DNA of 64,000 bases from Pseudomonadota bacterium (GTDB lineage Bacteria; Myxococcota; JACRCW01; JAFGSX01), in NCBI GenBank assembly GCA_043821645.1, contig JBDRCO010000094.1, forward strand, positions 32,001-96,000, in the 5' to 3' direction. Both the position numbers and the translations under genes were made by a program. Below, in pieces: positions 2,798 through 45,224 of this stretch. The stretch's first letter is position 1, and every line of letters begins with the position of its first letter. Under the pieces are notes generated by a model that was not told the DNA's origin, searched no databases, and saw nothing but the letters and a program-made list of their open reading frames with translations.

Positions 2798-3958
<1,161 letters not shown>

Positions 3959-4072: not shown

Positions 4073-4140
4073 GGCGCGAGTCCGCTGAGAAAACCGAGCG
4101 ATGTCTGACTCAAGCGGACTGAATCCTGACGCAGAGGAGA

Positions 4141-4267
4141 TTCGATGGTTTTTATCGCTATAAACTTTTTTTATCGAAATTTTATATACAGGAGGGGTCG
4201 CAAAAACCGCTGACTCAATGCGTCAATAAATTAATACTTGCGCCGAGTTACGCGATCGCTGTAAAAC
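4141..4267. promoter_or_regulatory. AT-rich divergent regulatory region with dyad motifs and a putative promoter for the 4296 gene
   Basis: Strongly AT-rich against the GC-rich background. CGAT-N7-ATCG (4143-4157), repeated TTTTTATCG, TGAC-N7-GTCA (4211-4225), TTGCGC-N18-TAAAAC (4238-4267). Confidence 0.45.
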
Positions 4268-4295
4268 CAGGCTCGCTTTTTGGCCGGGGGAGATC

Positions 4296-4631: not shown

Positions 4632-4773
4632 GTCTCCCGTCATTCCTTCGATGGTCCGCAATACCGAGAGCCAACCGACCTCGTGAGCCCTGTTTCCCGC
4701 TGCCAAACCTGAGCCCATTGCACGCGCCGCACACGTGACGTATGGGTACGCAGGGTGCTGATGAGGAAGGCAC

Positions 4774-5985: not shown

Positions 5986-6016
5986 GTGTGGGTTCGGCGC
6001 GTGAAGGAGTGTGATC

Positions 6017-6661: not shown

Positions 6662-6674
6662 GGACGACCCCGCG

Positions 6675-29600: not shown

Positions 29601-32600
29601 GGGCGGCGCGATGGACGGCACCATGGTCACCCGGATGACATGGTCCTCCTCGAAGTGCGTGGTCCACAGGTTGCCATCCGCGTCCGCCACCAGGTTGATG
29701 GGAGCCAGGAAGCCTCCCATCAACCACGTCCCCTCGCCCACCAGCTCGGTGCGGCCACTGCTGATGTCGGTGGGCCAGACCCGGATGTCGCCGGTCTCAG
29801 CATCGAGGGTGTACAGGTTTCCGGTCTCGTCGAACATCACACCGGCCACGTGGACATCGCTCAGCAGGGTCACGTTGGTCGGCGTGCCCATCGTGTTGAG
29901 TGACACCAGGCTGCGATGCCCCGTGTCGCACACGACCAGGTCCTGGGTACGGCGATCGATGGTGATGCAGGTCGGGTACTCGAACCCGGCCATGAAGACC
30001 TCGGCCAGGTCCGAGCGGCCGTCGAGGTCGCCATCGGGTTGCAGGGCGTACACCCACTTGCCCGGGTAGATGATGCCGAAGATGAAGGGGTCGTAGTACT
30101 CGGTGGCGTACAGCACGCCCGCGTCGTCGAACACCATCGAGATCGGGTTCTCGCCGACGATGGTGTCCACGGTGTTGCGAAAGTCGTAGTAGACCGAGAC
30201 CGACTCATCGGACAGGTCGACACGGGAGACCAGCTCGGGGTTTCCGGCGTTGACCGCGTACAGCGCTCCATCGGGCCCCACGGTCAGACCCGTGGGGGAC
30301 GACCCGACCTCGGCCAGCTGGGTCACCGCGAGCAGGGGCGAGATGCGATGCACGGTGAAGCCAGGCACGAAGCCCGCGCTCGTACTGCTGCGCTGGGTGC
30401 CGAAGGACGAGAAGTAGACGTTACCCGCCGCGTCCGCGGCCAGGCCATTGGGGCCCTCGGCATCGGCGGCGATGAGGCGAATCTCGACCGGGTTTCCCAC
30501 CCCGGGCAGCACGTTGAGCGGACGCCTCTCGACGTCGATGGCGGCGGTGATCACGGGATCGCCAGGTGGAAGCAAGGACGGGTTCACACGGGTCACCGCG
30601 CGTAGCGGCTGCCCGAGGCTGAGGGAGCGCGAGGCCTGCCCACCGGGAACCGGGCCCTGCCCGTCGGTACGCTCGAGGGCGATGGCCAGGGTAAACACGC
30701 CATCGGCCTCGTCAAAGGTCTGGACCCTGTCCAGCTCGAAGCGGTGCAGGGCCTGGGACACCGGCAGATGGATGGGTGTGGGCGAGACGCTCTGGTACAC
30801 GGTGCTGCCGTCGGGGCGGCTGAGGGTGAGGAAGGCCAGCATGTCCTGGGGCGCGTTGAGGGGGTTGAACAGGTCGGCAAACATACGCAATCGGGCCCCC
30901 GGAATGGCGAAGGCCGGAAGGCTTCCCAGTCCCACGACCTGCACCCACTCGCCGTTGGCGACGACGGTGGAGGTGGCGCGGCGGGACAGCTCGGGTGCTC
31001 CGTCGACGGTCGCGGTGACCGTGAAGCTGAAGGTGCCCGGTCCAGGCACATGCACGGTCAACGGCAGCGCATCGATGAGCGGGTCCGGTGTGACGGGCGA
31101 CGCCACGTTGGCAGCGATGCCGTCGACGCTCAGATGCAGTGTCGTGGGTGCGGACCCCAGGCGCTCCAGACGAAGGGCAAAGGCCACATCGCCGCCGGGT
31201 ATGGCCAGAGCGCCATCTGGATCGATGGCGATGCGGAAGTCGTGGGCACCGAGCGTGTTCAGGATGGCCGCGATGCGCCCAAACTGCAGTTCGACGGCGG
31301 CGAGATCGAGGTCAGCGCAGGTGTAGCCCGATACCAGCATGGCGTTGGCCAGGGCGCGTAGCTGCACGCGCACGTCGTCGAAGACGGGATCCCACAGCGC
31401 GCTGGCCAGGGTCCGCAGATCCTGGCTCAGGGCGTACACGTCCTTGGGCTGACAGCGCAGGTAGAGTCTGTGGTAAGGGTCGGCCGTCCCCTCGAGCACC
31501 GTCGCAACGCGCGTCTCACCCAGGCTGCGGGCGAGGTCGATGAGCTCGAGCAACCTGTCTGTCTCGGCGCCCACCGCTTCGAGCTGCACTCGGCTGTAGC
31601 CCAGAACGACCTCACCGTCGCGCGCCTCGATCACGACACCGTGCACAAGTCCCGGGCCCGCGTCGGGAGTGAGCGAGGTCTGCAGCGGGATGCGGCGCAC
31701 TTCACCCGGCGCCAGCGACAGCACCCGGGGTAGGCCAAGCAGCGGCATGTGCCGCGCCGTCGACGATGCCAGATGGACATCGCGGATGGCATTTCCTTTG
31801 GCCGTGATGGTCAGCGTGGCGTCCAGGGTCTCGCCCGAAACGCGCAACGCTCTGTCGGGATCCATGGTGAGGGTCACACCTAGCACCGCCGGGAAGGGAA
31901 TGGACGCGCTGCCCTGCGCCTGTGCCGCGCCGGTGCTGGCATCGAGGGTCAGCGTCAGGTCCGCGCCAGGTGTCGGCAATGGCAACTGGGGTCGGGCGGC
32001 GATGGCCACCGTGCCGCGCTCTCCCGGAGCCAGCTCCAGGCGATCGTTGCCGAGCACGAAATCCACACCCGCCGTCCCCGACGCCACGAGGTCAACGCTG
32101 GCGATCTGATCCCCGAGGTTGTCGACCTGCGCCATGAAAACGGTGGGCAGCGGCACACCATCAACCAGGGTTGTGAAAAGCGGCTCGTGGGCGAGACGGA
32201 CGACGAGCGGCGTTGCCGGCAGATCCCGGTACGCCTCCATCGCCTGTCCGACCTGGGTACCCGAGGCCTTGTCGCGCGCCCACACCTGGATGTGCTGAAC
32301 CTGGCCCGAAGCCTCCCGGGAAGGCGTCAGCACCAGGGCGCTGTCGTCGAGATCCACACGCCAGCCTGTGGGGGCCTCGACCCACAGCTCCACCTGCGCC
32401 GCCTCGCGTGCCAGTACTTGCGGCAGGGGCAGCGTGTTGGGGCCAGCCTGAAGGTGCAGGACCTCGGGAAGCGAGAGCAGCAGGGACGAGCTGGAGCTCG
32501 CTGCCAGCGGCGCGCCCAAGGCAGTACCGAGCGTTCCCTGCACACCGGCAAAGCCCCGGGCGCCGAGCTGCACCGTGGCGCCATCGACGTCGACCTCGAG

Positions 32601-35600
32601 CGTCGAGGTCTGGACCCACGCCTCTGCCGCACCCAGCTCCGCCGCCGTTGCCAGAAGCAGGAAGTGGCCTGGCGCGCTCTCGCCCTCGAGCACGCCGTCA
32701 AACTCGATGCTGCCACTGCACGAGGCCGTGAACGTGGCCAGGCGACCCGTGGTCAGGGAGTCGGTGCGCAGCAAGGCCCCCTGCCCCAGGGCCGCAACGG
32801 AACCTGGGCAGAAGATCTCGTGCGCCATGCCCCGCACCACGCCATCGCGGATCTGCAGCCCGTCCTCGAACAGCTGGCCCTGGGCGCTCAGCTCGCCCTG
32901 ACCCCACGCGACGGGGACATGCACCCGTAGCCCACTGGCCGCGCGCAGGCTCAGGGTGCCCGCCACGTGAAGCATGGTCCCGCTGGCCTGGGCTGGGAGC
33001 TCCGGCAGCGCAGCCACCTGCGCGCTGAGTGTCAGGTGGTCGACGGACAGCGGTCGCCGCAGCGGCCCGCTGGTGCCGGCATTGAAGTCTGGCAAGGGCG
33101 GGTCGATACCCAGGGCCATGATCTGCACCCGCGCCTCACCCACCGTCTTGCCCAGGCTCTGCCCCAGGTCAAAGCCGCCGATGAACTCCTCGACGCCGGG
33201 CGTCGGCGCCGCCGCTGCGAGCAAGGCAAAGATCAGGCTGCTGAGATCCCCCTGTGCCGCACCAGCCGCCGCGGCCGCCGCGCCAGCTTGACTGCCCGTC
33301 GCCCCACCCAGGGCCAGCCCGAGATTCATCCCCGTCGACACGGGGTCGAACTTGGTCAAGGTACTGTCGAGAACCTTGGCGAGTCCCTGCAGGGTGCCCG
33401 CGGAGAAGCCCGCCATGCCCCCGAACCACACGCCGAGGCCCTTGGTGAGCACCTTGTCGAGGAACGAGTACTCCACAGCCGCGCTGTGCCAGCCATTGGC
33501 GTCGACGGCCTGCACGTCTCCCGTTGCCAGGTCGAACTCGAGCCACACCATGGCGGCGACGCCGTTGAGCATGACAGGCTGCTCCGGAAGCAGCACCTGC
33601 ATCCCGCGAGCGATGGCGGCGCGCACGCCGGCGCGAACCCCATCGTCGATGGGCAACAGGTACAGGTCCAGCCAGTTGGAGGCATGGATGCTGCGAATCA
33701 GAACGCCCTGCTCCTCGGCGGCAGCGAACAGGGCGCGCGCAGAGATCACGTGGGCGTCGTCGACCAGGCGCAGCACCTCGCCCTCGAGGTTGGCCTCGAT
33801 GAAGCCGCGGGCCATGCGGAAGATCATGGCTGCAGACGCCGGAATGTCGTCGGGTGCCACAACCTGGAGCTCGTTGGCCGCGAGATCGACGACCGGCGCG
33901 GGTCCCTGCGAGGTCCCTCGCGCCCTCACCACGACGACGCGGGGCCTTGCCGGATACGCGCGTACCAGCATGAAGTCCTGGGCCCGCTGAGCCAGACGGC
34001 TGGAGAGATCCAGGTAACGGGCGCCGATGGAACCCACCAGCGCGTGCTGGGCCCGGCGACCCAGGTCCTGGAGATCCGCCAGCTGCGCCGACTGGGCGGG
34101 GTCCAGGGCGGCCCCATCCCCCAGTGCGCTCAGCGAGGCAATGATGTCGGATCGAGCTTGCAGCTGCTCCCGGTGACGCTGGGTGGATCCCAGCCAGCGC
34201 GCCGCCGCATGAGGCGCCTGCCACGACGAGGCGACTTGGATGCCCACCACGTCGAGCGGCCCCAGCGCGGCCAGGGGTTCATTGGCATCGAGCTGCAGGC
34301 TGACATCCTCTTCGCCCCCCAGGCGCACCGAAGCACCCAGGCGGTCCGCGATGGTGTGGTGCACGTGCTGGACCGTGCCACTGGGTGAGGTCACCGTGAC
34401 GTCGGCAAAGGCACCGGTGATCAGCTGATTGCCACCGGGAAAGCTGGTGGTGTGCTCCTGGTAGGCCTCGCCCTCGAGCACCACCTGACCATCGATCGTG
34501 AGCTGAGGCGTGTAGGTGTGCAGGTTGCTGCCGAAGACCAGGCCCTGCATGGAATTCGAGTGCACCAGATGCTGCAGGGCGAGCAGGCGGCCGACCAGCT
34601 GCACACTTGAAAAGCGCGCGCTCAGCGGCTGCTTCACGTCCGTCGCGGCCATGCCGAACATGGGGTTGAACAGCTCGACGGTGAGAGCCACGTCGACGTG
34701 GTGCCGCAGGGCATCGTCGATCGCGGCGAAGGTGCTTGTGGGAGATCCCGGCGCTGTGCCCAGGCACGGATCCACGTCGACCCAGCCGCTGCCGCGCTCG
34801 ACCTGAACCCAGACGTGATCGCGCGCCACCAACAGCAGCTCGGCATCGGTCGCCGGGTCTGCGAACAGCAGGTCGCGCAGCGCCTGCCTGTCCTGGGGGA
34901 TGAAGGTGTCCATGCCCAGGCCTGGCCAGGTCGCCTCGACCACGGCGGGATCGAGCAGCTGGTCGAGCAAGAACTCGGGGTCGCGCACCGGCGCCAGCAT
35001 GTTGTTGCGGGGTCGGAACATGCTGCGGATGAGTGCGGCAGCGGTGGCGTCGTCGACGCCGGCCCTGGCATAGCGTGCGGGAAGACCGACCGCCCGCAGC
35101 ATGGCGACGAGAAGGCTGGCCTGGTCCCAGGCATTGCCGGCCTCGCTCCACAAGGTGCCACGCGCCCCGCGCAGGGAGCCGCGGTAGGCCTCGTACTGCA
35201 CGTCGCGGCTGACGCGAGCGATGATGCGATCGGGGTCTCCTGCCAGCTCGGCGACGGCAGACAGGACCTCCGGGTCTGCGGCGTCCGCGTCGAGGGTGGG
35301 CTCAAGATACAGGTCCAGCGACGGGTCGTGGGTTGCCAGGCGCAGCGCCGGGGCCACGGCCTGGCGCGCCGTTCCTTGCACGGCCCTGACCTCGGCACCG
35401 AGATCGACCCCGTCTTCAATGGTCAGCTCGATACGTGCCGACTCGCCCGGCCAGAGGTCACCCAGACTCCAGCTCCACGCCTCGCCATCGGGCTGGGCGT
35501 CTGGCGTACTGGTCACGAGGGTGCCGCCCGCCTCGACCTGATCCCTCACCACGACACCCCTGGCCACCTCTGGACCGCTGTTGTGCACCACCAGCGAGAA

Positions 35601-35747
35601 GCGCACCTGTCCCAGGGCGTCGGCCCGGACGACAGCTGGCGCGGGCCAGATGGTGACGCTCTGTGCCCGCAGGGGCGAGGCCACGGCGAGCAGGGTGCCC
35701 AGCACCACCAGGCGCGAGGCCTGGTGGGGTCTGCACGAGGAACCCAT
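26664..35747 (-). CDS. Giant (~3030 aa) surface protein: DUF11-like + transglutaminase-like + Ig-like + NHL-like propeller + Fn3-like + MYXO-CTERM-type anchor
   Basis: 9-kb open frame; signal-like N-terminus; VHNSGPEVARGVVVRDQ; GNAWDQASLLVAMLRAVGLPARY...HVWVQV...WVDVDP; PxGLxxDxxGNxY repeats; YFWRCRAWDG and YHARVRAADLYG; C-terminal GCGC + TM + RRRRR. Start could also be 35765 or 35825. Confidence 0.85.
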   Translation of the reverse strand: MGSSCRPHQASRLVVLGTLLAVASPLRAQSVTIWPAPAVVRADALGQVRFSLVVHNSGPEVARGVVVRDQVEAGGTLVTSTPDAQPDGEAWSWSLGDLWPGESARIELTIEDGVDLGAEVRAVQGTARQAVAPALRLATHDPSLDLYLEPTLDADAADPEVLSAVAELAGDPDRIIARVSRDVQYEAYRGSLRGARGTLWSEAGNAWDQASLLVAMLRAVGLPARYARAGVDDATAAALIRSMFRPRNNMLAPVRDPEFLLDQLLDPAVVEATWPGLGMDTFIPQDRQALRDLLFADPATDAELLLVARDHVWVQVERGSGWVDVDPCLGTAPGSPTSTFAAIDDALRHHVDVALTVELFNPMFGMAATDVKQPLSARFSSVQLVGRLLALQHLVHSNSMQGLVFGSNLHTYTPQLTIDGQVVLEGEAYQEHTTSFPGGNQLITGAFADVTVTSPSGTVQHVHHTIADRLGASVRLGGEEDVSLQLDANEPLAALGPLDVVGIQVASSWQAPHAAARWLGSTQRHREQLQARSDIIASLSALGDGAALDPAQSAQLADLQDLGRRAQHALVGSIGARYLDLSSRLAQRAQDFMLVRAYPARPRVVVVRARGTSQGPAPVVDLAANELQVVAPDDIPASAAMIFRMARGFIEANLEGEVLRLVDDAHVISARALFAAAEEQGVLIRSIHASNWLDLYLLPIDDGVRAGVRAAIARGMQVLLPEQPVMLNGVAAMVWLEFDLATGDVQAVDANGWHSAAVEYSFLDKVLTKGLGVWFGGMAGFSAGTLQGLAKVLDSTLTKFDPVSTGMNLGLALGGATGSQAGAAAAAAGAAQGDLSSLIFALLAAAAPTPGVEEFIGGFDLGQSLGKTVGEARVQIMALGIDPPLPDFNAGTSGPLRRPLSVDHLTLSAQVAALPELPAQASGTMLHVAGTLSLRAASGLRVHVPVAWGQGELSAQGQLFEDGLQIRDGVVRGMAHEIFCPGSVAALGQGALLRTDSLTTGRLATFTASCSGSIEFDGVLEGESAPGHFLLLATAAELGAAEAWVQTSTLEVDVDGATVQLGARGFAGVQGTLGTALGAPLAASSSSSLLLSLPEVLHLQAGPNTLPLPQVLAREAAQVELWVEAPTGWRVDLDDSALVLTPSREASGQVQHIQVWARDKASGTQVGQAMEAYRDLPATPLVVRLAHEPLFTTLVDGVPLPTVFMAQVDNLGDQIASVDLVASGTAGVDFVLGNDRLELAPGERGTVAIAARPQLPLPTPGADLTLTLDASTGAAQAQGSASIPFPAVLGVTLTMDPDRALRVSGETLDATLTITAKGNAIRDVHLASSTARHMPLLGLPRVLSLAPGEVRRIPLQTSLTPDAGPGLVHGVVIEARDGEVVLGYSRVQLEAVGAETDRLLELIDLARSLGETRVATVLEGTADPYHRLYLRCQPKDVYALSQDLRTLASALWDPVFDDVRVQLRALANAMLVSGYTCADLDLAAVELQFGRIAAILNTLGAHDFRIAIDPDGALAIPGGDVAFALRLERLGSAPTTLHLSVDGIAANVASPVTPDPLIDALPLTVHVPGPGTFSFTVTATVDGAPELSRRATSTVVANGEWVQVVGLGSLPAFAIPGARLRMFADLFNPLNAPQDMLAFLTLSRPDGSTVYQSVSPTPIHLPVSQALHRFELDRVQTFDEADGVFTLAIALERTDGQGPVPGGQASRSLSLGQPLRAVTRVNPSLLPPGDPVITAAIDVERRPLNVLPGVGNPVEIRLIAADAEGPNGLAADAAGNVYFSSFGTQRSSTSAGFVPGFTVHRISPLLAVTQLAEVGSSPTGLTVGPDGALYAVNAGNPELVSRVDLSDESVSVYYDFRNTVDTIVGENPISMVFDDAGVLYATEYYDPFIFGIIYPGKWVYALQPDGDLDGRSDLAEVFMAGFEYPTCITIDRRTQDLVVCDTGHRSLVSLNTMGTPTNVTLLSDVHVAGVMFDETGNLYTLDAETGDIRVWPTDISSGRTELVGEGTWLMGGFLAPINLVADADGNLWTTHFEEDHVIRVTMVPSIAPPSLDLTLTHGTLGGGVDTTSALPVVGPWPTYSSGTLTWLLPFEATATAQHFEYAQQLTGLQPGSVVPLSSGSTLELQQGVDRTTLALDSLIAVVDHLVSLSPDLVDLERGAGHTVKVTLRNHRDQPDTVDLAVVGLDPSIRAEIPTQVTVPAQGSITVDLVLFSSDFTPDGLQRYQIVASSVLAGNDAVVGTARVHGYRIVATPDPVEIRGRNGEQVSFSVLYTRQAGDTRRAFYTRTQGLADITSTHQERLGLVDFYMTDGNRLVSYTFTLRGPAGRYPVGVEISELVAPYRYDLVAAVIVTIIDDDSVEVVADPPVVRSGRTVPFTLTAVIRNTGMTTRTVTLSRCCGPAYWGPVFNAGPHVLGPGAEKRVPIRMSPNGILVGDYIHTLKVTDVDNNLITDSFDAHVILETPGAKLRILDPRSVVSSTGEAQFTVRVDRVVFDPPGMMDLAVTGPLAFSASLARTHVDLTSVTRVDVPLHVEGLSGLTQGPWPVTVLGWPPDDPTLVFSDTGLVTVAVSGVYGHFSPATLAGRHSETFTAMLVLDNLDFSAGTGVQVALASSDTSLHVTPQSAALSLAAGGQAAIPLQLTVDAPGLYELVATVSPSIEAPFELRLPLDVVLNHSPTAPTLLVPVAGAHTGARPGLSFSAASDDDGDALTYACEVDDGVGGVANLSSPLTSMVVGPLAPGAYFWRCRAWDGYVWGPWSGDESFVVDLALDNHPPEAPVIQSPQDQAQDLSLPLNLEWEQSLDLDGDLLSYQVQVATDDQFVGLIHDVDQIPMGGSATVQHAVPELVTGQNYHARVRAADLYGTSPWALVQFTTAAPVPDAGVDAGGQSPDGAVADVPLLDAGAVDTVVADGASTFTDAFGLDAPALDGTLATDAALDAGAADVVLDDGGRVDTGSGETGVDTGAAIGADGSGTATGQGDASGKSPTAAEGCGCASTGRSVPLAVLGLGLSLLVWRRRRRAGTVPSGEE

Positions 35748-36052
35748 TGTCTCGCGAAAAAGCATCCAGCCCTGGCGACAGGGTCCCAGCAGTGGCATCG
35801 GTAACCTCTCTGAAGCTGACATCATCGCACGCCTGGTTTGAGGATCCCACGCAGCCCTGGTCGATCACGGTCATCGCCTGATGACCGCTGACGCCCCGTG
35901 GCCGAGGCCCCGCGCGCTCCAGGGAGGCTTATCTTAGCTATTTTGTCGGTATTAACCGTCGCATTTCGGCCTTTTTCCGATTTTCGCGAAGGGCTCTTGA
36001 TGGCAGCGTACGCGCGATGGTTTGAAAGCATTCACTATGTGCGAGGTTCGCC

Positions 36053-37420
36053 ATGAAACGTGCCCTCATCATCCTTGTCATCCTGGTCGTGGGTGCCCTG
36101 CTCTTCCCCGTGTCCAACCTGGTCGTGGGAGCCCCCCTGGTCAAGCTCGCGTCCGGGTCCGCAGACCCAGGTCTGGGCAAGGTGGCCTCGACGCTGGAGC
36201 AGAAGTGCACCAACTGCCACACCAGCAAGCCCGTGCTGCCCTTCTATGCCAGCTTCCCCGTGGCCAAGGGCATGATCGAAGCGGACATGCGGCAGGGCCT
36301 GCGCTTCCTCGACCTGGTAGGAGCGCTTTCCCCCGAGTCCGGTGCAGCGGTCAATCCCGCGGTGCTGGCCAAGCTCGAGTACACCGTGCAACGCGACGAG
36401 ATGCCGCCAGGCCGCTACCGCATGCTGCACTGGGACGGTGGCCTGAGCCAGGCCGAGAAGGACGCCCTGCTGGGCTGGATCCGTGAGGTCCGAAAATCAA
36501 ACTATGCGACAGCAGATGCACCGGCGAATCTGCAAGGTCAGGTGCTGCAGCCACTGCCTCTGGCCGTGGCGGTTGACGCCACCAAGGCTGCCCTGGGCGA
36601 CAGGCTGTACCACGACAAGCGCCTGTCCGGCGATGAGACCGTGAGCTGCGCCAGCTGCCACGACCTGGCCAAGGGCGGCACGGATCAGCTTGCCACCTCC
36701 ACCGGCATCCGGGAGCAGAAGGGCCCCATCAATGCGCCCACGGTGTTCAACGCCGGCTTCCAGGTGCTGCAGTTCTGGGATGGGCGAGCCAAGGACCTGC
36801 AGGAGCAAGCCGCCGGTCCCGTCGAGAACCCACTGGAGATGGGCGCCACCTGGGACGAGGTCATCGCCAAGCTGGGCCAGGACGAGGCCCTGGTCACGGA
36901 GTTCACCGCGGCCTACCCCGATGGCCTGAGCAAGGCCAACGTGACCCACGCCATCGCCGAGTTCGAGAAGACCCTGGTGACACCCAACTCGAAGTTCGAC
37001 AAGTACCTGCGCGGCGACCAGGCCGCCCTGGACGATGCCGAGAAGAAGGGCCACCAGGTCTTTGCCGACCGTGGCTGCACCAACTGTCACGTGGGAAGCC
37101 TGCTCGGCGGTGCCAGCTTCGAGCTGATGGGTCTGTGGAAGGACTACTTCAAGGTGCGCGGCAACGTGAACGACGCCGACAACGGCCGCTTCAGCGTGAC
37201 CAAGAAAGACAGCGACCTGCATCGCTTCAAGGTGCCCACCCTGCGCAACGTCGCCCTCACCCAGCCTTATTTCCACGACGGCAGCAAGGCCACGCTCGAG
37301 GAGGCGGTGCGCGACATGGGCACCTACCAGCTCGAGCAGCCCCTGCGTGACGACGAGGTGACCGCACTGGTGGCCTTCTTGAAAGCACAGACCGGCGAGC
37401 TCAACGGTAAGCCCCTGTAG
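36053..37420 (+). CDS. Tri-heme cytochrome c peroxidase (YhjA/Ccp-like, N-terminal heme-binding domain)
   Basis: Three CxxCH motifs (CTNCH, CASCH, CTNCH), INAPTVFN, QFWDGRA, NPLEMG, FKVPTLRNV, PYFHDG. Confidence 0.93.
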   Translation: MKRALIILVILVVGALLFPVSNLVVGAPLVKLASGSADPGLGKVASTLEQKCTNCHTSKPVLPFYASFPVAKGMIEADMRQGLRFLDLVGALSPESGAAVNPAVLAKLEYTVQRDEMPPGRYRMLHWDGGLSQAEKDALLGWIREVRKSNYATADAPANLQGQVLQPLPLAVAVDATKAALGDRLYHDKRLSGDETVSCASCHDLAKGGTDQLATSTGIREQKGPINAPTVFNAGFQVLQFWDGRAKDLQEQAAGPVENPLEMGATWDEVIAKLGQDEALVTEFTAAYPDGLSKANVTHAIAEFEKTLVTPNSKFDKYLRGDQAALDDAEKKGHQVFADRGCTNCHVGSLLGGASFELMGLWKDYFKVRGNVNDADNGRFSVTKKDSDLHRFKVPTLRNVALTQPYFHDGSKATLEEAVRDMGTYQLEQPLRDDEVTALVAFLKAQTGELNGKPL

Positions 37421-37501
37421 GGTTCCGCTCCCTCACCACGCTTCCCCGACAGTTGTTCTCCCCGGCAGCGCTGCCTGACCTCGCGGTGCACAAGACAGGT
37501 T

Positions 37502-39769
37502 TCAGTTGCCGCCGGTACCGACGGTCGTGTCGTAGCGCACACCCTCGGGCACGGGGACCGGCTGGTTCACGGTGACGCCGTGGTCACCCGAAGTGATCTG
37601 GCTCGAGTCCACTGCCACGAAGGCCGTGAAGGGCGACATCAGACCAAAGCTCAGAGCAGTGTCGCGGATGCCATCGACCAGTTCGATGACGGGGTCGGCG
37701 TAGCTGGCCCGGGTGGCCAGGTCCGCGATCTTGGTGCGCGCCCAGATCTGGGCCAGGGCTGGTCGGGAGTCCACGGCCTTGTCGGCGAGGACCACGTCGA
37801 ACTGCACAGGCTTGCCACCGGCGCGACCCTGGACGCTGAGGCGTGCCGGGGGATCTCCATCGAAGCGGCCGGTGAGGATCACGGGCCGACCCACGTGCAG
37901 ATCCGGGATACTGGACGGGTAGACCTCGCGCACGGTAGATGAGCCCCACTCCACGCGGATGTCGCTCATGGCCGGGTAGGCGATGCGCTCGTAGAAGGCA
38001 TCGACCTCCTGGTCGGCCGCGTCGTCGTCGAGACCGAGGTAGGCCACGGCGCCTCGTCCCAGCACGGCCATGCGCTCGAGCAGGTAGCGATTGGGCGAGG
38101 AGCCCACGCCGAAGCTGAAGATGCGCGCCGCGCCCAGCTTGAGGTGCACGGCAGACAAGATCTGTTCCTCGTTGCCGATGTAGCCATCGGTCATGAAGGA
38201 CACGATGCGCAGCTTGCCGTCCTGGTGCGGGAAGTCGAGGGCCGCGCGTATGCCCTCGATCATCTCGGTGCCACCCTCGCCGTTGAGCGACTCCAGGTAG
38301 CGCAGCCCCTTCTTCACGTTGTCGCGGGTGGCCAGCAAGGGCCGCGGGCCCAGAGCCGAGGCGTTGTTGGAGAAGCGGATGATCTGAAAGCTATCGCCGG
38401 GCTCCATGAGGTCGAGCACGCGCTTGACCGCGCGCTTGGCCTTGTTCAGGGGTACGCCGCTCATGCTGCCCGAACAGTCGAGGACAAAGATCATCTCGCG
38501 GTCGGTGCGCGGGATGCGCTTGAGCTCGGCCGGTGGCGCCAGCATCAGGGTGAAGAAACCGCCGCGCTCGTCGCGATGGGTCAGGAAGGCCTGCTTGATG
38601 GCATCACCCGCCACCTGGTAGCGCAGCACGAAGTCCTTGTTGGGGATCACGTTCTTCGTGGCCAGGACCACGACCTTCTCGCGCTCGGACTTGTCCTGGA
38701 CCTCGATCGCGTGCGTGCTCGAGGCCAGACCCTCGATCTTGAGTCCTGCATCGAGGTGAACACTCAGGCTGAGATCCGCGCCACTGCGCTGGTCTGGTCG
38801 CAGGTAGGGCACCTCGACAGGTTGGCCGGAGCTGCCCGACGCACCCGCAGGCACCGCGCCCACGCCATTGGTGTATCCAGGTGGGTTGTAGCGAGGCCCC
38901 ACGACCATGGGGTAGCTGAACACGAAGGCGCCATCGCGATAGGGCAAGGCGTTGAAGTAGGTGATGTCGATGGCTATGGCCTTGCCTGGTTCGATGTTGG
39001 CGACCTTCTGGGTGAAGATGTTGGGCCGCTCCTGGGTCAGCAGCGAAGCCACATGCCCGGCGGCGCGCGCTTCGCGGTAGATCTTCTCGGCCTCGGCGCG
39101 CTCGCGCACGATGCCGCGGATGCGACGATCGCCCACCACCATCACGAACTCACTCACTGCCGCGTCGTCTGGCAGCGGGAACACGTACACCGCCTCGATC
39201 TTGGCGTCGTAGGGATTGCGATAGGCCTGTACCACATGCACGGTGGCGATGTGGCCAGCGATGTCGGCCTTGACGTCGGTGTGCTGCAAGGGCAAGGGCA
39301 CGAAGCGGCCGTTTTCAAGCTCGGCGCGAAGTTCACCGGACCCGGGCTCGGTGGGATCTGGCGGCGCCACGTCGCCTTCTGGCTTGGCCTTGGCGATGAC
39401 CCACAGCTCTTCGCGGCCACTCGCAAGATCTGCCAGTACGCGACGCGCGGACCCCTCGTTGCGCAGGCGACGACGAGCTTCGAGGTACTGGCCATCGGGC
39501 TTCGTCAGGTCACCCTCGATGGTCCGGTCGTCGAAGTCGATGCGCGTCTTTTTCTTGTGCGAGACGCCATCCTGGGAGTCCCCACCCTCGGGGACGTCCT
39601 CGGCAAAGGCCTCGGCCGGATCCATGGGAGGGCCTGCCGACTCGGGCTCGTAGCCACGGCCGTAGTGCGCACACATGGCCAGGGACATCAGCAGGGCTGG
39701 CCCGGCCAGCAGGGCGAGCAGGCGGGGCAGCGTCTTCGGGGCCCGTGTTCTCGTCGACGGTCGGGTCAT
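37502..39769 (-). CDS. VIT + von Willebrand factor A domain protein, putative lipoprotein, with CglF/GltF-like segment
   Basis: ATG 39769 overlaps the upstream stop (ATGA). VIT: YRNPYDAKIEAVYVFPLPDDAAV, NIFTQKVANIEPG. MIDAS DCSGS...GGT...TDG. C-terminal GLMSPFTAFVAVD. Confidence 0.9.
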   Translation of the reverse strand: MTRPSTRTRAPKTLPRLLALLAGPALLMSLAMCAHYGRGYEPESAGPPMDPAEAFAEDVPEGGDSQDGVSHKKKTRIDFDDRTIEGDLTKPDGQYLEARRRLRNEGSARRVLADLASGREELWVIAKAKPEGDVAPPDPTEPGSGELRAELENGRFVPLPLQHTDVKADIAGHIATVHVVQAYRNPYDAKIEAVYVFPLPDDAAVSEFVMVVGDRRIRGIVRERAEAEKIYREARAAGHVASLLTQERPNIFTQKVANIEPGKAIAIDITYFNALPYRDGAFVFSYPMVVGPRYNPPGYTNGVGAVPAGASGSSGQPVEVPYLRPDQRSGADLSLSVHLDAGLKIEGLASSTHAIEVQDKSEREKVVVLATKNVIPNKDFVLRYQVAGDAIKQAFLTHRDERGGFFTLMLAPPAELKRIPRTDREMIFVLDCSGSMSGVPLNKAKRAVKRVLDLMEPGDSFQIIRFSNNASALGPRPLLATRDNVKKGLRYLESLNGEGGTEMIEGIRAALDFPHQDGKLRIVSFMTDGYIGNEEQILSAVHLKLGAARIFSFGVGSSPNRYLLERMAVLGRGAVAYLGLDDDAADQEVDAFYERIAYPAMSDIRVEWGSSTVREVYPSSIPDLHVGRPVILTGRFDGDPPARLSVQGRAGGKPVQFDVVLADKAVDSRPALAQIWARTKIADLATRASYADPVIELVDGIRDTALSFGLMSPFTAFVAVDSSQITSGDHGVTVNQPVPVPEGVRYDTTVGTGGN

Positions 39770-40197
39770 GGCTGGCTCCTGTGCTTGAGGTCGAAGCGGC
39801 ACGCGATGGGCCGACCCTCGCGATCCACGCTGGCGATCACCTTGAGTGAGAAGGTGGGCTCCGCGCCTGCCAGGCGCAGGTGCAGGGTCAGCAACCGTGG
39901 TGATGTCGAGGGAAGGTCCGCCGCCGTGCTGAAGGCTGCGACCACGATGCGGCCGTGCATCAGGGCCGCGGGATCGTAGTAGGGCGCGTCCGAGAAAGGC
40001 TTGGACTCGCCGCCCTCGACCCCGACGATCTGGGCGTCCCCATCCGCCACGAGCTCGAGCTGGTACGCGGCCAGGGGGGCTCCGTCGCAGTCCATGGTCA
40101 CGTCGAGGGGTGCAAAGCGAAGGCCCGAAGGCGATCCATCTTGGGCGCTCGCAGCAGATCCCAGGACCAGGCTCAGTATCAGCAGCGGGGTTCGCAT
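39766..40197 (-). CDS. Secreted single-domain cohesin-like protein
   Basis: Signal peptide (ASA-Q). Beta-strand pattern LDVTMD...LAAYQLEL...IVGVEGG...GRIVVAAF...RLLTLHLRL matches a cohesin-type sandwich. Coupled (TGATG) to the dockerin gene. Confidence 0.65.
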   Translation of the reverse strand: MRTPLLILSLVLGSAASAQDGSPSGLRFAPLDVTMDCDGAPLAAYQLELVADGDAQIVGVEGGESKPFSDAPYYDPAALMHGRIVVAAFSTAADLPSTSPRLLTLHLRLAGAEPTFSLKVIASVDREGRPIACRFDLKHRSQP

Positions 40198-40742
40198 CAG
40201 CGCCCTCCCCCACCCAGGGCCACAGCGCGTCGGGCGATGGCCTCGACATCGCTGGCGGTGATGACCTGGTCACCGTCGAGGTCGTGCAGCTTCAACGGGT
40301 CGCCGCGCTCCAGGCTGCGCGCCAGAAGCAGGGCGTCCACGATATTGACCTGCCCATCCGCATTGACGTCGCCAGCGATCCCGGGTGGCACTGCTGCCAC
40401 CTCGGCTGAACGGTGCATTGTCATGGGTACGCTGATGGCGACGACGAGCCCCGCGGCCGCGGCCACCGGCGCTGCCCAGCGCAGCACTCGAACGACGGTG
40501 CTTTGCTGCCTGTGTCTCGTGCGCGCCCGGCGGGCGCTGTCCTGGACCATCTCCAGCAGCATGGCCTCGCGGGCCACCGACAGCGGTATGGTTTCCGGTT
40601 GCGCCTGGGCATCGCGCAGACTCTGCAGACGAGCGAGCTGCTGCTGGCAGGTGGTGCAACTCTGCAGGTGCTGCATCACCTCCGCCGAGGCCTCGCGGGT
40701 TCTGGCCAACTCGAGCTCGAGCATGTCGGGGTGTGTGGTCAT
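40197..40742 (-). CDS. Zinc-finger (ZAS/zf-HC2) anti-sigma factor with TM helix and C-terminal dockerin domain
   Basis: H4...HLQSCTTC; TM WAAPVAAAAGLVVAISV; duplicated Ca-loops GDVNADGQVNIVDALLLAR and DLDGDQVITASDVEAIAR. Confidence 0.85.
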   Translation of the reverse strand: MTTHPDMLELELARTREASAEVMQHLQSCTTCQQQLARLQSLRDAQAQPETIPLSVAREAMLLEMVQDSARRARTRHRQQSTVVRVLRWAAPVAAAAGLVVAISVPMTMHRSAEVAAVPPGIAGDVNADGQVNIVDALLLARSLERGDPLKLHDLDGDQVITASDVEAIARRAVALGGGGR

Positions 40743-40751
40743 CGTGTGCTG

Positions 40752-40778
40752 TCAGCGCTGCTCAGCCGCAAAAGGTTC
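40752..40778 (-). promoter_or_regulatory. Putative ECF-sigma promoter of the anti-sigma/cohesin/VIT-vWA operon
   Basis: Minus strand GAACCT-N16-GCTGA, close to the RpoE/AlgU-type GAACTT-N16-TCTGA. Ends 9 nt before an ATG that has no SD. Confidence 0.5.
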
Positions 40779-40979
40779 ACGGCATACGGCGGCGACACGA
40801 ACTTTTTTTGTCCTTCGGGCGTAACGTGGCGTTTTGTTTGGCGATGGATGAACCGGTCGGGACTGCGCCCTTGGCCCGGACGAGCACCGCCAGGTGTGCC
40901 CCCTGGTGGCTTTGGCCTAAATAAGCGTGTTACGACGACCTACCCGGCCTCGCACAAGCGTTAGGACAGGGGACACCCC

Positions 40980-41522
40980 ATGCCGCGCCACATCGCCCTG
41001 CTTCGTGCCGTCAACGTGACCGGTCACAACAAGCTCGCCATGGCCGATCTCCGGACCATGGCCGAGTCCCTGGGGTTCGAGGACGTGCAGACGATCCTGC
41101 AAAGCGGCAACCTCGTGTTCTCGTGCGCTGGGCACACCACCGCCAGGCTCGAGGAGACGCTACAGGATGCGGCGCGCGCGCAGCTTGGACTGGACACGGA
41201 CTTCATGGTGCGCACGGTGCGTGAGTGGAGAGCCATCATCGACGGCAATCCCATGCCGGAGCAGGCCAGGGACGACCCAGCTCATCTACTCTTGCTCGTC
41301 CTCAAGGCCAAACCTGCCATGACGGAGGCTCGGTCTATCCAGAACTCCATCCCCGGCCGCGAGAAGCTTCACCTCGGCGAGCGCCACGCCTACATTCACT
41401 ATGCGGATGGCGTCGGCCGCTCCAAGCTCACCACGGCCTGGCTGGACAAGAAGCTCGGCACGCGCGGCACAGCCCGCAACTGGAACACGGTGCTCAAGCT
41501 GGCAGCCCTCGTCGGGGCTTGA
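40980..41522 (+). CDS. DUF1697 family protein
   Basis: IALLRAVNVTGHNKLAMADLR, VQTILQSGNLVF, GTARNWNTVLKL. Confidence 0.92.
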   Translation: MPRHIALLRAVNVTGHNKLAMADLRTMAESLGFEDVQTILQSGNLVFSCAGHTTARLEETLQDAARAQLGLDTDFMVRTVREWRAIIDGNPMPEQARDDPAHLLLLVLKAKPAMTEARSIQNSIPGREKLHLGERHAYIHYADGVGRSKLTTAWLDKKLGTRGTARNWNTVLKLAALVGA

Positions 41523-41537
41523 GCAAGCACCTGAGCG

Positions 41538-41592
41538 ACCGCCCACCCCTGTTGTCTGCAACAGTCGCGACGGAGTCCGGGCGTGGGCTGTC
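41538..41592. terminator. Long imperfect hairpin between convergent genes (possible bidirectional terminator)
   Basis: GACCGCCCACCCC pairs with GGGCGTGGGCTGTC, enclosing CTGTTG-tctg-CAACAG; no U-tract. Confidence 0.35.
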
Positions 41593-42130
41593 AGGGGGCC
41601 TCGGTTGTGAGCTGCAGCTTCTTCAAGGCGTTGTGCAGTCTGGACTTCACGGTACCCAGGGGCAGGTCGAGGGCCTGGGCAATCTCGTCGAGCGAAAAAT
41701 CCAGGGCGAAGCGCAGCCGCACCACCTCGCGATGGGTTTCGGGGAGTTCCTGGATCATGCGCTCGAAATCTCCCGCGGCGGGCGGCTCCCAGCGCAGGTC
41801 AGGCAGGTCGCGCCCGGCCAGGTGATCGTCCAGCCGCACCACCTTGCGCCGCTTGCGAAACAGCGAGATGCAGCGGTGCTTGATCACGGGGTAGAGGAAG
41901 GCGCGCAGACTGGCGCGCAGCACAAAGCCAGGAAAGCGAGCAAACAGTTCGACAAAGGCCTCCTGCATCACGTCCAGGGCGTCGTCGCGGTCTGCGGTGA
42001 AGCGAAAGGCGAGAGCCGAGGCCCAGTCGCGATGGCGCAGCATGATCTCGACAAAGGCAGCTTCCTCGCCGTGATTGGCGAGCCTTGCCAGCGCCTGCTC
42101 GTCGAGCTCTGCATGAGGCCGCGGGGTCAT
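41591..42130 (-). CDS. ECF RNA polymerase sigma factor
   Basis: Region 2 DALDVMQEAF; region 4 SLDEIAQALDLPLGTVKSRLHNA; 179 aa. Confidence 0.95.
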   Translation of the reverse strand: MTPRPHAELDEQALARLANHGEEAAFVEIMLRHRDWASALAFRFTADRDDALDVMQEAFVELFARFPGFVLRASLRAFLYPVIKHRCISLFRKRRKVVRLDDHLAGRDLPDLRWEPPAAGDFERMIQELPETHREVVRLRFALDFSLDEIAQALDLPLGTVKSRLHNALKKLQLTTEAP

Positions 42131-42203
42131 GGAGCAGAGGTCCTACCCCGGAGCCTGGGCCACAGCAACCAGGGACCGCCTCCCCGGGGCAGGGATGTCA
42201 CAC

Positions 42204-45200
42204 CTAGTGTCGCGTGAGCAGATGCCGCATGGCCGCCAGGTAGCGATCGCCAGAGGACAGGTAGAAGGCCAGGGCGCGCTCGAAGCGCTTGCCCACGAGG
42301 CCCTTGAGCAGCATCTCGGACACCAGGCGCTTGCGCGTGAGCACCTGCTGGGACAACCACAGGACCTGCTTCTCCTCGTCGGACATGTGCTGCGTGAACT
42401 GCCGCAGCGCGGTCTGGGCGCGCGGCTGGTACATCCAGAAGTAGAGCAGATCAAGGGCGTTGACGACGAGCAGGTGCAGCACGTCCTCGGCACGGTCCTT
42501 CAGCCTGTGCACGAGTTCCTTGGGGGCGTCGATCAGGTGAAGTACCTCCGCCTCGGGGAAGGCCATCTCCATGCGACCATGAGCGTCGAAGAGCTGCTCC
42601 AGCTTCTCGCGATAGTCCATGGTTCGATGGGACAGGTTGTGCTGACGATCCGCGGAGCCCTCGATGATCGCAGCGACCAGGTCAGAAGCTGCCTTGGAGA
42701 TGACGGCAGCCCACAGCTGCAGGCCGGCCTGGATATCGAGTTCGCTCAGCCCCGCCCTCCTGGCGAGGGTGAACAGCAACGCATTCAGGCCCACGGCGAC
42801 CGGGATGGAGATCACGGTGCGAAAGAAGTTGCCGACGATCGCCGCGAGCGGGAGCCCCCGGTAGGTGTTGTGGCTGGAGATGTAAATGCCGTTGGCCAGC
42901 GCCATCACCGAGTACAGCAACAGGGGGCCGGTCGTCGTGGTCACGCCCAGACTGCGCGAGAGCAGCAGGTCCTTGACCAAAAAGTCGAGCAGTGGCACCG
43001 AGAAGCCGGTGAACAGCAGCGAGTCCGCCACCCGGTTCCAGGAAACGAAGTCGTTCCAGTGCAGCAGCGATCGCGGACGCAGACCGCCGCCCCCGACGAT
43101 GGACTGCACGATGTTGCGCCCGCCGGTGATGGCGAACCAGATGACCGCACCGAACCAGGACAGCAGCCACCAGTCCTTGGTCAAAAAGAAAGTCAAAAAG
43201 GCCGGAATGAAGCCAAGGGTGATCTTGCCGATGTTGAGAAGTGCGCTGTTCAGCTGCGCCAGACCCGGGCCAGACGCGTTGTTCTCTCGGGCGCCCGCCA
43301 GACAGCTTGCCAGGCCATTGCCTGTCTCCTCGGCCAGACCTCCCAAGGACGCGATGTTGCCCTGCGCGCTGAGCGTGGTCGCGTTGTGGCCCACGCTCCA
43401 GGTGACCTGCCGCCCGTTGTCGACGAACCACACCGCAGACGAGCGCGGCCCTCGCGGCTGGCGCGGATCGCCGTGGGCACCGCGCGACTTCACGGTCTCG
43501 CTGATTTGCCTCTGCACCGTGGTGGTCACCGGAACAAGACTGAAACCATCGCGACGCAACTGCCGGCGTGCGCGCGGTGGAAGTGTCGACACGACGACGA
43601 GGCCCATACCCCGGGAGTGGCGCGAGCGGCCAATGGAGTCGCTCCCCAGGCGACTGTGTAGCCTGTTGGTGCGATAGCACTCGAGCAGCCCTGGGAGATC
43701 TCGCAGGATGCCGCGAAGGTTCTCGCACTGCTCCGCACTTCCCGCCCGCGGATCCTGCTCCAGCTCGTGCAGGAGGGTGCGCACCAGGCGCTTGGCCTCG
43801 ACCACGTTGCCACTGTTGAGCACGAGGCGCAGGTCATTGATCCGAGTACGGTGCTCGGTGCGTCCTTGCGCCCAGTCCTTGAGGTTGAAGATCTCTAGGT
43901 GGCTGACGTGGCCTCCGCCCTCATGCAGCACCTGCAGCACGTGCGCCGGCTCCAGGTTGGTCGGATTGAGGGTGATGCGCGACCGGCACGGCAAAGCACC
44001 GAGCCTGGCGATCATGGCTGCCGGTCCCAGGCGGAGAAGGTCAGGGACATCGTCACTCTCGCTGGGCCGGGAGGGATTGGATGCCGTCGGATTGATTTCA
44101 GGGCGCAGATAGCGCTCGACCAGGACCTCGGGGACCAGCTCATCCAACGACCTTATCAACGCAGCGAGGTGGTTCTTCTCCCCTCCCGTGGCCTCGTCAT
44201 GTTGCGCACACAATTCCTGCACGCGCGCACGGAGCAGTGGCAGCAGGGCGGCATGGACGAACTCGGCAAGGTGCACCAGCGAAGCCTGCGCGGGGCCGAC
44301 GAAGAGGGAGAAGGCCTCCTCATCCAGTGGCGGCAGCTCGATGCCGAACTCCTGGTTGAGGGCCGGCAGGTGGCGGGCATTGAAGCTGCGGAGCAGCTCG
44401 AGGATGGCGCGACGCTCGTACGCTGCGACCTCGCGCCCCTGGGCCATAAAGCGCTCGACCTCGGGCTCCTGCAAGAAGCTCACGAAGTCACGGCGGTTGA
44501 GGAAACCGCGCGGTGCCCACACCAGATGCGCGTAGCGATCCCGCAGTCGCGCCGACACCTCGACACCGATACGCACGTCGACGCCCATGATCTCGGCGGC
44601 CTCGAGCAGCTCGGCGGCGACCTCCGGGCGCACGTGGTTGTAGTAGATGACGCCGAGAAAGCGCAGACCCTTGATCCACGCGTCCATGATGAGGTGTGTC
44701 GGTGACTTGCGCCCCTTGGTGTTGGCGTCGTGCACATGATGGTCGAAGGCCAGCTGGTTCCAGGCCTCGGGCATCTCCAGCAGGTGATAGCGCCGCAGCT
44801 GGTTGCGGATGCGGCGCGGATTGCCCGACGAGGCCTCGCGAAAATCGTGAGCCAGCGCGAGCTGCCTGTCCTCGTCCCCCCGGGCACGCACCAGCTCCTT
44901 CATGATCTGCAACAGCACCCGCGCCACGTTCAGGCGAAGCTTCTGGCTGCTGTCGTGCATGACCTCGGCGCGAACCTCGCGCAGAGCCGCGATGCGCTCC
45001 TGCGCGGTTCCCTCGTGCAGGGTCTCCAGCAGGTCCACCATCGCAGCGGCCAGGCGCAACGACTTGGGAGCAGCCAGTTCCTTGATGCCGCGTGGATGCA
45101 GATACGGGTCAAACAGTCGGCGGATTAGGGCCGGGCCCTTGCCTCGCTTGGAGGCCCTCCCGACCATCTCCAGCATGCGCAGATCGCCGGCATCAAAGAG

Positions 45201-45224
45201 TAGGGGATTGCGCTGCGTGTTCAA
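42204..45224 (-). CDS. Large PHP-fold (metal-dependent phosphoesterase-like) protein with C-terminal membrane domain
   Basis: FDHHVHDANTKG, RIGVEVS, LGSDS, followed by several TM helices. TTG start with GGAG upstream. Confidence 0.7.
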   Translation of the reverse strand: MNTQRNPLLFDAGDLRMLEMVGRASKRGKGPALIRRLFDPYLHPRGIKELAAPKSLRLAAAMVDLLETLHEGTAQERIAALREVRAEVMHDSSQKLRLNVARVLLQIMKELVRARGDEDRQLALAHDFREASSGNPRRIRNQLRRYHLLEMPEAWNQLAFDHHVHDANTKGRKSPTHLIMDAWIKGLRFLGVIYYNHVRPEVAAELLEAAEIMGVDVRIGVEVSARLRDRYAHLVWAPRGFLNRRDFVSFLQEPEVERFMAQGREVAAYERRAILELLRSFNARHLPALNQEFGIELPPLDEEAFSLFVGPAQASLVHLAEFVHAALLPLLRARVQELCAQHDEATGGEKNHLAALIRSLDELVPEVLVERYLRPEINPTASNPSRPSESDDVPDLLRLGPAAMIARLGALPCRSRITLNPTNLEPAHVLQVLHEGGGHVSHLEIFNLKDWAQGRTEHRTRINDLRLVLNSGNVVEAKRLVRTLLHELEQDPRAGSAEQCENLRGILRDLPGLLECYRTNRLHSRLGSDSIGRSRHSRGMGLVVVSTLPPRARRQLRRDGFSLVPVTTTVQRQISETVKSRGAHGDPRQPRGPRSSAVWFVDNGRQVTWSVGHNATTLSAQGNIASLGGLAEETGNGLASCLAGARENNASGPGLAQLNSALLNIGKITLGFIPAFLTFFLTKDWWLLSWFGAVIWFAITGGRNIVQSIVGGGGLRPRSLLHWNDFVSWNRVADSLLFTGFSVPLLDFLVKDLLLSRSLGVTTTTGPLLLYSVMALANGIYISSHNTYRGLPLAAIVGNFFRTVISIPVAVGLNALLFTLARRAGLSELDIQAGLQLWAAVISKAASDLVAAIIEGSADRQHNLSHRTMDYREKLEQLFDAHGRMEMAFPEAEVLHLIDAPKELVHRLKDRAEDVLHLLVVNALDLLYFWMYQPRAQTALRQFTQHMSDEEKQVLWLSQQVLTRKRLVSEMLLKGLVGKRFERALAFYLSSGDRYLAAMRHLLTRH

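Follow-up and report, generated by a model that had tools for sequence, protein, structure and literature searches.

What would a dockerin do on the outer face of an anti-sigma-like membrane protein, encoded beside a secreted protein with a cohesin fold? This question is raised by positions 37502..42130 of a 64,000-nucleotide stretch of contig JBDRCO010000094.1 (positions 32,001 to 96,000; the whole stretch is called the window here). Genes for an extracytoplasmic function (ECF) sigma factor, a transmembrane (TM) protein with a dockerin domain, a 143-aa cohesin-fold protein and a VIT-vWA protein lie there on the minus strand. Cohesin-dockerin pairs are the high-affinity, calcium-dependent assembly modules of cellulosomes and are regarded as the assembly glue of extracellular enzyme complexes. 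Zinc-binding anti-sigma (ZAS) proteins sequester ECF sigma factors until a signal arrives from outside. A first-pass annotation of the window had joined these two themes in a candidate signalling system. The verdict of the present analysis is that the locus encodes a real, uncharacterised form of ECF/anti-sigma signalling. We consider it somewhat more probable than an even chance that a sigma/anti-sigma switch operates here, with the dockerin-cohesin contact as its extracytoplasmic control point, and that it is closed into a feedback loop on the state of the complex of cohesin and VIT-vWA protein.

Gene content and conserved linkage

The four minus-strand open reading frames (ORFs) described in the first-pass annotation are present at their positions, as are the overlaps of start and stop codons (TGATG, 1 nt; ATGA, 4 nt) that couple the last three. 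They encode an ECF (group 4) sigma factor of 179 aa (41591..42130), an anti-sigma-like single-pass protein of 181 aa (40197..40742), a stand-alone, putatively secreted cohesin-fold protein of 143 aa (39766..40197) and an ITIH-like VIT-vWA protein of 755 aa that starts with the ATG at 39769 (37502..39769). Their third-position G+C (GC3) of 0.81-0.84 is at the level of real genes in this genome, and the G+C content of the window is ~67%. The earlier description of a four-gene interval was right in that all four ORFs are real, but it overlooked a plus-strand gene between the sigma and anti-sigma genes (40980..41522; Pfam DUF1697, E 2.8e-39, GC3 0.84). There are thus five genes in the interval, and the DUF1697 gene separates the sigma gene from the anti-sigma gene here.

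The DUF1697 gene does not belong to the module. The same-family genome G029 lacks it at the equivalent place: there, genes for the sigma, the anti-sigma, the cohesin and two tandem VIT-vWA proteins follow one another. It follows that the DUF1697 gene is an insertion specific to this lineage. Its product was also among five flank proteins that had no BLAST match in the ORFs of 80 related loci. The insertion is situated between the sigma gene and the promoter of the module, and it leaves both transcription units intact. Despite the insertion, the window sigma is, judged by similarity, the sigma of the module: when the module sigma of the related locus L042 was compared with the source genome, the window sigma was the best match (58% identity, E 1.7e-54), and the next match had an E-value of 4.4e-17.

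Relatives of the cohesin-fold protein were found in 123 stretches of contigs sampled at one genome per species, and 80 of these stretches were kept as loci. By family profile, a TM-dockerin gene was located directly upstream of the cohesin gene in 78 of the 80 loci, and the other two loci were cut at a contig edge. A VIT-vWA gene was located downstream of the cohesin gene in 74 of the 76 loci with room for it. A sigma gene was located upstream on the same strand in 59 of the 71 loci with room, and in 55 of these 71 it lay within 400 nt, with the TM-dockerin gene in the +1 position after it. Overlapping or near-abutting start and stop codons recurred in the loci of the relatives. All-against-all clustering of the 80 loci did not reveal a fifth gene that is conserved (10/80 loci for the next cluster on the same strand), and none of the window's flank genes recurred beside the module in other loci. 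The conserved unit consists of exactly four genes.

Most of the 80 loci belonged to Planctomycetota, and a few were labelled Verrucomicrobiota, Myxococcota/'Deltaproteobacteria' or Aegiribacteria. The cohesin family gave 266 matches in a word-indexed search, and an exhaustive profile search returned 1,320 clusters (50% identity). Among genomes sampled from the phylum of the window, 3 of 301 had the family (G000 counted), as did 37 of 301 sampled from the phylum of G301. In a quick VIT-vWA tree (FastTree alone, on 37 rows selected from 51 complete ones), the window sequence grouped with that of L014 (support 100) inside a Verrucomicrobiota/Planctomycetota set. This placement would fit lateral spread of the cassette, although it does not prove a donor. 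The best explanation of the cassette is that it is a self-contained, laterally spread envelope-signalling unit.

Domains of the four proteins

Comparison with domain and structure databases upheld the identities that had been read from the translations. The sigma factor matched Pfam Sigma70_r2 (E 7.5e-13) and r4_2 (E 3.4e-16) with no r3 match, and NCBIfam TIGR02937 (ECF superfamily) scored 78.1 bits against a cut-off of 42.9, as expected for an ECF group 4 sigma factor. The dockerin was confirmed on the 181-aa protein at residues 123-171 (40230..40376, minus strand), where Dockerin_1 (PF00404) scored 37.8 bits against a cut-off of 22.9 (E 2.1e-9), which makes it a type I dockerin. The VIT-vWA protein matched Pfam VIT (E 2.8e-35) and VWA (E ~1e-11).

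The 181-aa protein is predicted to consist of a cytoplasmic N-terminus, one TM helix and a periplasmic dockerin. Its translation contains HLQSCTTC, a motif of the HxxxCxxC (zinc anti-sigma) type, at residues 25-32 (40647..40670, minus strand), and a hydrophobic segment at residues ~89-107 (40422..40478, minus strand) that follows a basic stretch. Within the dockerin there are two loops of the DxNxDG type, of the calcium-binding kind. Dockerin_1 was matched by 47 of the 48 members of the TM-dockerin family, the two loops lay ~30 residues apart in most members, and the family profile matched the solved dockerins 5lxv_B (9.4e-6) and 2jnk_A (7.5e-5). The TM segment was conserved in the alignment, and orthologues scored 1.5-2.7 on the Kyte-Doolittle scale at the corresponding place (cut ORFs aside). 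By the positive-inside rule, the N-terminus would be inside and the dockerin in the periplasm. Identity among the anti-sigma orthologues was 23-35% across phyla.

The HxxxCxxC motif reported earlier is present in the window protein, but it is not a feature of the family. Together with a further His at position 4, it was found only in the window, L014 and L042, and it was absent from 75 other loci with a TM-dockerin gene and from L086, a locus of the same phylum as the window. These comparisons indicate that the motif is limited to a Myxococcota-like branch. Neither zf-HC2 nor RskA matched the 181-aa protein in Pfam at E<=1. The NCBIfam anti-sigma model NF052375 reached E 5.2e-5 and 23.4 bits, which is below its curated cut-off of 100, and it was matched below cut-off by 24 of the 48 family members. 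The N-terminus of the protein would be the part that sequesters the sigma factor. Locus L086 (G283, 3894-7536) was a divergent variant in which a sigma gene, a TM-dockerin gene and a cohesin gene were followed by a gene for a ~400-aa protein with weak VIT-vWA similarity only (E 1e-18).

The 143-aa protein has a signal-peptide-like N-terminus. Its AlphaFold2 model, built with 30 homologues, was all-beta with a predicted local distance difference test (pLDDT) value of 84.8. When this model was compared with the PDB by Foldseek, it matched cohesins almost exclusively (probability 1.00, E ~1e-3), and the only other folds in the list were two carbohydrate-binding modules. The best matches were 6kgf_A (template modelling score, TM-score, 0.61), 2xdh (non-cellulosomal and archaeal; 0.61) and 1ohz_A (0.60). 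On this Foldseek comparison, which is the sole basis of the assignment, the protein is a predicted cohesin by fold and not by sequence. Two grounds on which the earlier proposal could have failed, a different fold of the 143-aa protein and a loss of the gene linkage in other genomes, are therefore removed. Members of the cohesin family were nearly all single-domain proteins.

Natural fusions that join the N-terminus, the TM segment, the dockerin and the cohesin in one chain came to light in the exhaustive profile search and when P0260 was used as the query. These were P0260 (356 aa) and P0274 and P0275 (288 and 306 aa), the latter two being related and from different sources. The junction in P0260 differs from that in P0274/P0275, and at least two fusion events are therefore required. 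P0282 was rejected as a fusion and is a probable frameshifted gene call, and the word-index search found no longer, fused relatives of the cohesin. The fusions are the only indirect support for the putative binding between dockerin and cohesin.

The source genome (94.7% complete) contained a single Dockerin_1 match, that of the anti-sigma, a single cohesin-like gene and no Pfam Cohesin match; three Planctomycetota genomes contained 5-11 dockerins each. Competition by other dockerin or cohesin proteins, which had been offered as one way to release the sigma, is unlikely in this organism because there is only one of each. The earlier statement that the locus is not a cellulosome agrees with these counts and with a scan of ten neighbouring ORFs, none of which had a carbohydrate-active enzyme (CAZyme) domain.

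The VIT-vWA protein is a probable lipoprotein with a putative lipidated Cys33 in an atypical lipobox (LAMC). Many orthologues have a lipobox-like Cys after a signal peptide, and others have a different N-terminal hydrophobic anchor. The residues of the metal-ion-dependent adhesion site (MIDAS), D431, S433 and S435 of the DxSxS motif (38465..38479, minus strand) together with T501 and D528, were invariant in the VIT-vWA alignment. The model of the protein (pLDDT 72) matched ITIH1 (6fpy_B) over ~600 residues (E 1.5e-34, TM-score by target 0.69). The protein is thus ITIH-like, with a VIT domain, then a vWA domain with a MIDAS, and an ITIH-like overall fold. Its orthologues were 47-59% identical across phyla, far above the anti-sigma, and it is the best conserved component of the module.

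NCBIfam TIGR03788 matched the VIT-vWA protein with an E-value of 3.1e-153 and 511.5 bits, below the cut-off of 551.65. The match ran to residue 745 and left profile positions 594-629, the last 36, unmatched; these are presumably where the sorting signal lies. No LPXTG was visible in the C-terminus, and the protein was not assigned to this family. The last ~30 residues (37502-37600, minus strand; PVPVP.GV.Y.TTV-type) were almost invariant across phyla with a pLDDT <50, and this tail may be a binding peptide. Its candidacy as a specific cohesin-binding element was weakened, since the TIGR03788 match reaches residue 745 and the tail is therefore a general feature of the family. Residues 60-103 (39461-39592, minus strand), in a variable N-terminal linker, matched NF033764, a CglF-like motif (adventurous gliding motility), at E 2.4e-14 and below the cut-off. 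Tandem duplication of the VIT-vWA gene was observed in some loci, namely L085 (G029; 1706-6466) and L073 (1471-6081).

An ECF-type promoter before the anti-sigma gene

A motif composed of TGAAC(C/T)TTT, 15 nt, CTTAAC (the -10 element, read as GCTTAAC) and then GGAG was found in the spacer between the sigma and anti-sigma genes, usually starting 47 nt before the start codon of the TM-dockerin gene. In the window, the corresponding ECF-type promoter-like motif (40750..40779, minus strand) starts 36 nt before the anti-sigma ATG and has TGAACCTTT as its -35 element and GCTGAC as its -10 element; L014 and L042 have GCTTAC at the latter place. The -35 element of the module equals the one given as conserved in group ECF33 in the available part of PMC7826278.

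The strict pattern was present within 150 nt upstream of the TM-dockerin gene in 41 of 74 loci, for an expectation of 0.0014 per 150 nt; the background, taken from the remaining sequence of the loci on both strands, gave 13 matches in 1.40 Mb. Variants of the promoter were visible in many of the remaining loci. A position weight matrix (PWM) of the promoter suffered from over-fitting to a redundant Sedimentisphaerales-like subclade, and scores from its two scans cannot be compared with each other; the pattern counts were therefore relied on instead.

In the 7.07-Mb source genome, a relaxed pattern matched twice, at the window site and at a palindrome (TGAAC...GTTCA type) located ~90 nt before a gene with a RecA match of E 1e-139 (L090, G000:C20, 1500-1540). 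We take this palindrome to be the SOS box of this lineage, and it was rejected as a second promoter and treated as a chance match. In five other genomes, the strict pattern gave four matches in total, one in each of four genomes, and a reversed control gave 0. A TM-dockerin gene directly followed each of the four matches, and one match belonged to a locus that has a two-component system upstream. The match in G301 precedes a second, partial copy of the module (G301:C1:5823168-5823896, minus strand) that is made up of the promoter motif, a dockerin match and the N-terminal third of a cohesin; the full G301 module is located at 0.71 Mb.

No further site was apparent upstream of the sigma genes; the median of the second-best PWM scores was 0.4. 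Bipartite k-mer counting and a comparison of four upstream regions revealed no common motif upstream of sigma. A Gibbs sampler returned only a sigma-70-like TTGAAA-N17-TAAAC from one subclade (L018, L030, L032, L034, L039, L062 and relatives), which suggests that the sigma gene is transcribed independently of its own activity in that subclade. A simple scan of 37300-42400 for sigma-70 promoters and terminators gave nothing above shuffled sequences. On these promoter comparisons, the sigma gene itself would be outside the module promoter. Since the promoter is kept across phyla and is almost unique genome-wide, the trio of TM-dockerin, cohesin and VIT-vWA genes is likely to be the sigma's main target, and the circuit would then be a feedback loop. 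The promoter before the anti-sigma gene was missed in the first-pass annotation; it would make the trio the output of the sigma as well as its presumed sensor.

Proposed switch, rival explanations and known systems

In the proposed switch, the ECF sigma would recognize the TGAACCTTT...GCTGAC promoter just before the three translationally coupled genes. These would provide an anti-sigma that has only a dockerin outside, a dedicated secreted cohesin, and an ITIH-like VIT-vWA lipoprotein whose metal-dependent adhesion site is intact. The sigma would be held at the membrane by the anti-sigma, and the cohesin, alone or with the VIT-vWA protein, would plug the periplasmic dockerin in a calcium-dependent manner. 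Occupancy of this plug would set the stability or the activity of the anti-sigma, and the feedback circuit would thus report on, and restore, the cohesin/VIT-vWA complex in the envelope. The direction and the nature of the signal are presumed in this scheme. The RseB-like protector role that had been suggested for the cohesin is one possibility among several, and the likeness to RseB would be functional only, since homology to RseB/MucB was not found in Pfam or NCBIfam and the fold is that of a cohesin. A more specific claim, that cohesin-dockerin occupancy, with or without loading of the VIT-vWA protein, gates an ECF sigma with an essentially self-only regulon, as a closed homeostatic loop in a cassette that has spread across at least four phyla, is put forward more tentatively, as slightly short of an even chance.

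Several observations weigh against the switch. The 143-aa window protein had no Pfam match at E<=1, PF00963 included, and no NCBIfam match; PF00963 was matched weakly by 5 of 48 members of the cohesin family (best E 0.0043), and the family profile matched no solved cohesin in the PDB at E<=10. The Planctomycetota members of the TM-dockerin family lack ~20 residues that include the HxxxCxxC motif, and their cytoplasmic part of only ~55 residues is short for a class I anti-sigma domain. The -10 element in the window deviates from the consensus, and the window site scored only 6.7 bits (rank 34) on the over-fitted PWM. Finally, 12 of the 71 testable loci have no sigma gene upstream. In one subclade, a two-component system stands upstream of the trio in place of the sigma (L010, 2171-4822; L019, 3330-5312): a histidine kinase occupies the sigma's place in L010 and L019, and an OmpR-type response regulator precedes it in L010. 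An orthologous sigma was not found in G604 and G605, both metagenome-assembled genomes, in which the best matches were 31% identical. The sigma-less loci L010, L019, L003 and L013 retain the ECF-type promoter, and an orthologous sigma is present elsewhere in G607 (76% identity, with no anti-sigma after it) and, in pieces, in G606. Upstream ORFs of the same size as the L010/L019 histidine kinases were observed in L003 and L013.

The loci without a sigma gene bear on an unlikely alternative, namely that the trio forms a structural complex of the envelope, its TM-dockerin protein and cohesin serving only to hold or organise the VIT-vWA adhesion protein. The sigma or the two-component system would then be only the transcriptional regulator, no signal would pass through the dockerin, and the short N-terminus would not be a true anti-sigma in most lineages. 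An intact trio in 12 of 71 loci without an adjacent sigma, some of them with a two-component system upstream, is what anchoring would allow, yet the two-component-linked loci retain the ECF-type promoter, and two of the four such genomes have an orthologous sigma elsewhere. The cytoplasmic part of ~55 aa in most TM-dockerin members also agrees with an anchor, but it is set against the sub-threshold anti-sigma similarity in half of the members, the ZAS motif in the Myxococcota-like branch and the regular position of the TM-dockerin gene directly after the ECF sigma gene (55/71 loci). That the VIT-vWA protein is the best conserved component would suit this reading, and cohesin-dockerin pairs are well known for anchoring. 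However, many VIT-vWA orthologues have an N-terminal signal or lipobox anchor of their own, which would make a second anchor needless, and the cohesin lacks any additional domain that could hold a cargo.

The calcium loops suggest a direct sensor of divalent cations, in which a fall in periplasmic Ca2+ would unfold the dockerin so that it loses the cohesin and is degraded, freeing the sigma, and the VIT-vWA protein with its MIDAS would be a cation-dependent output or co-sensor. Cellulosomal dockerins fold in a calcium-dependent manner, the two canonical loop motifs are retained in nearly all members of the family, and the MIDAS residues do not vary. Nonetheless, no data point to calcium as the physiological signal in a family that spans very different habitats and phyla, no cation transporter is found among the conserved neighbours, and such a sensor is considered improbable. 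It is more doubtful still that dockerin and cohesin are not a pair at all. The beta-sandwich would in that case only look like a cohesin and would not bind the dockerin, and the linkage would arise from, for example, common export or co-regulation. The absence of a cohesin signal at the sequence level, TM-scores of only ~0.6 and the modest Foldseek E-values would be compatible with a look-alike. The nearly exclusive matching to cohesins at probability 1.00, the strict adjacency and coupling of the two genes, the two independent fusions of both domains in one chain and the single copy of each in the source genome all speak for a pair.

The proposed switch resembles RpoE-RseA-RseB of E. coli and AlgU-MucA-MucB in that an ECF sigma is combined with a single-pass anti-sigma and with a separate protein in the periplasm that would be expected to bind the outer domain of the anti-sigma and modulate its fate. 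It differs in that the outer domain is a dockerin and its partner has a cohesin fold, with no RseA-C or RseB match in Pfam; in that the VIT-vWA protein is an obligatory third component; and in that the ECF promoter is located before the anti-sigma gene and not before the sigma gene. The Dockerin_1 domain with two calcium-loop repeats and the cohesin fold are shared with type I cellulosomal pairs (1ohz, 6kgf) and with the A. fulgidus cohesin 2xdh. In contrast to cellulosomes, the module has no scaffoldin and no enzyme-borne dockerin, with one dockerin and one cohesin-like gene in the source genome; its dockerin is carried by an anti-sigma-like membrane protein, and its cohesin is undetectable by the Pfam Cohesin model. 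SigI/RsgI of Clostridium thermocellum, as far as the available sources describe it, is likewise a sigma/anti-sigma pair tied to the cellulosome world, but its sigma is of the sigma-I family, RsgI senses polysaccharides and undergoes autoproteolysis, and the switch involves no dockerin or cohesin.

The VIT-vWA protein shares with ITIH1 (6fpy) the whole-length VIT-vWA fold and the MIDAS. It is strongly similar to the 'marine proteobacterial sortase target' family TIGR03788 but differs from it in scoring below the cut-off, in its N-terminal lipobox-like anchor and in being encoded in a sigma-controlled operon. Among the groups in the available part of Casas-Pastor et al. (2021; PMC7826278), ECF226 and ECF289 also include a vWA domain in the extracytoplasmic sensing part. 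There, vWA and DUF3520 are fused to the anti-sigma, whereas in the module the VIT-vWA protein is separate, a cohesin-dockerin pair stands between, and no DUF3520 match was found. In the same portion of that source, ECF216 is described from Myxococcales with a zinc-finger anti-sigma and 'EF-hands' in its context, which is a lead only and is given with no mention of VIT or vWA, and for ECF217s1 a dockerin is reported in a kinase context. From the available part of PMC6461901, the 'planctosome' is a different proposal. No description of this architecture was found in the literature searched, in line with the earlier statement that no characterised system is known to have it, although the ECF Hub models or the full supplement of PMC7826278 might already list the sigma group.

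If the proposed switch is correct, a cohesin-dockerin pair on an anti-sigma in a conserved family of this size would give such pairs a second role, in signal transduction, and would extend the ECF repertoire by a new module for extracytoplasmic sensing. Bacterial ITIH-like VIT-vWA proteins would also gain a first functional handle. The cassette appears orthogonal, since the strict promoter pattern occurred once each in four of five genomes and the relaxed pattern only twice in the source genome. Because it is also small and has a defined promoter, it is directly testable in a heterologous reporter and is a potential synthetic switch.

Two large minus-strand ORFs lie near the module. A 1006-aa ORF (42204-45224) with good GC3 and no Pfam match ends 73 nt before the sigma start, and it did not adjoin the module in other loci. 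On the other side, a giant 3053-aa ORF (26664-35825) contained DUF11, transglutaminase-like core and fn3 matches.

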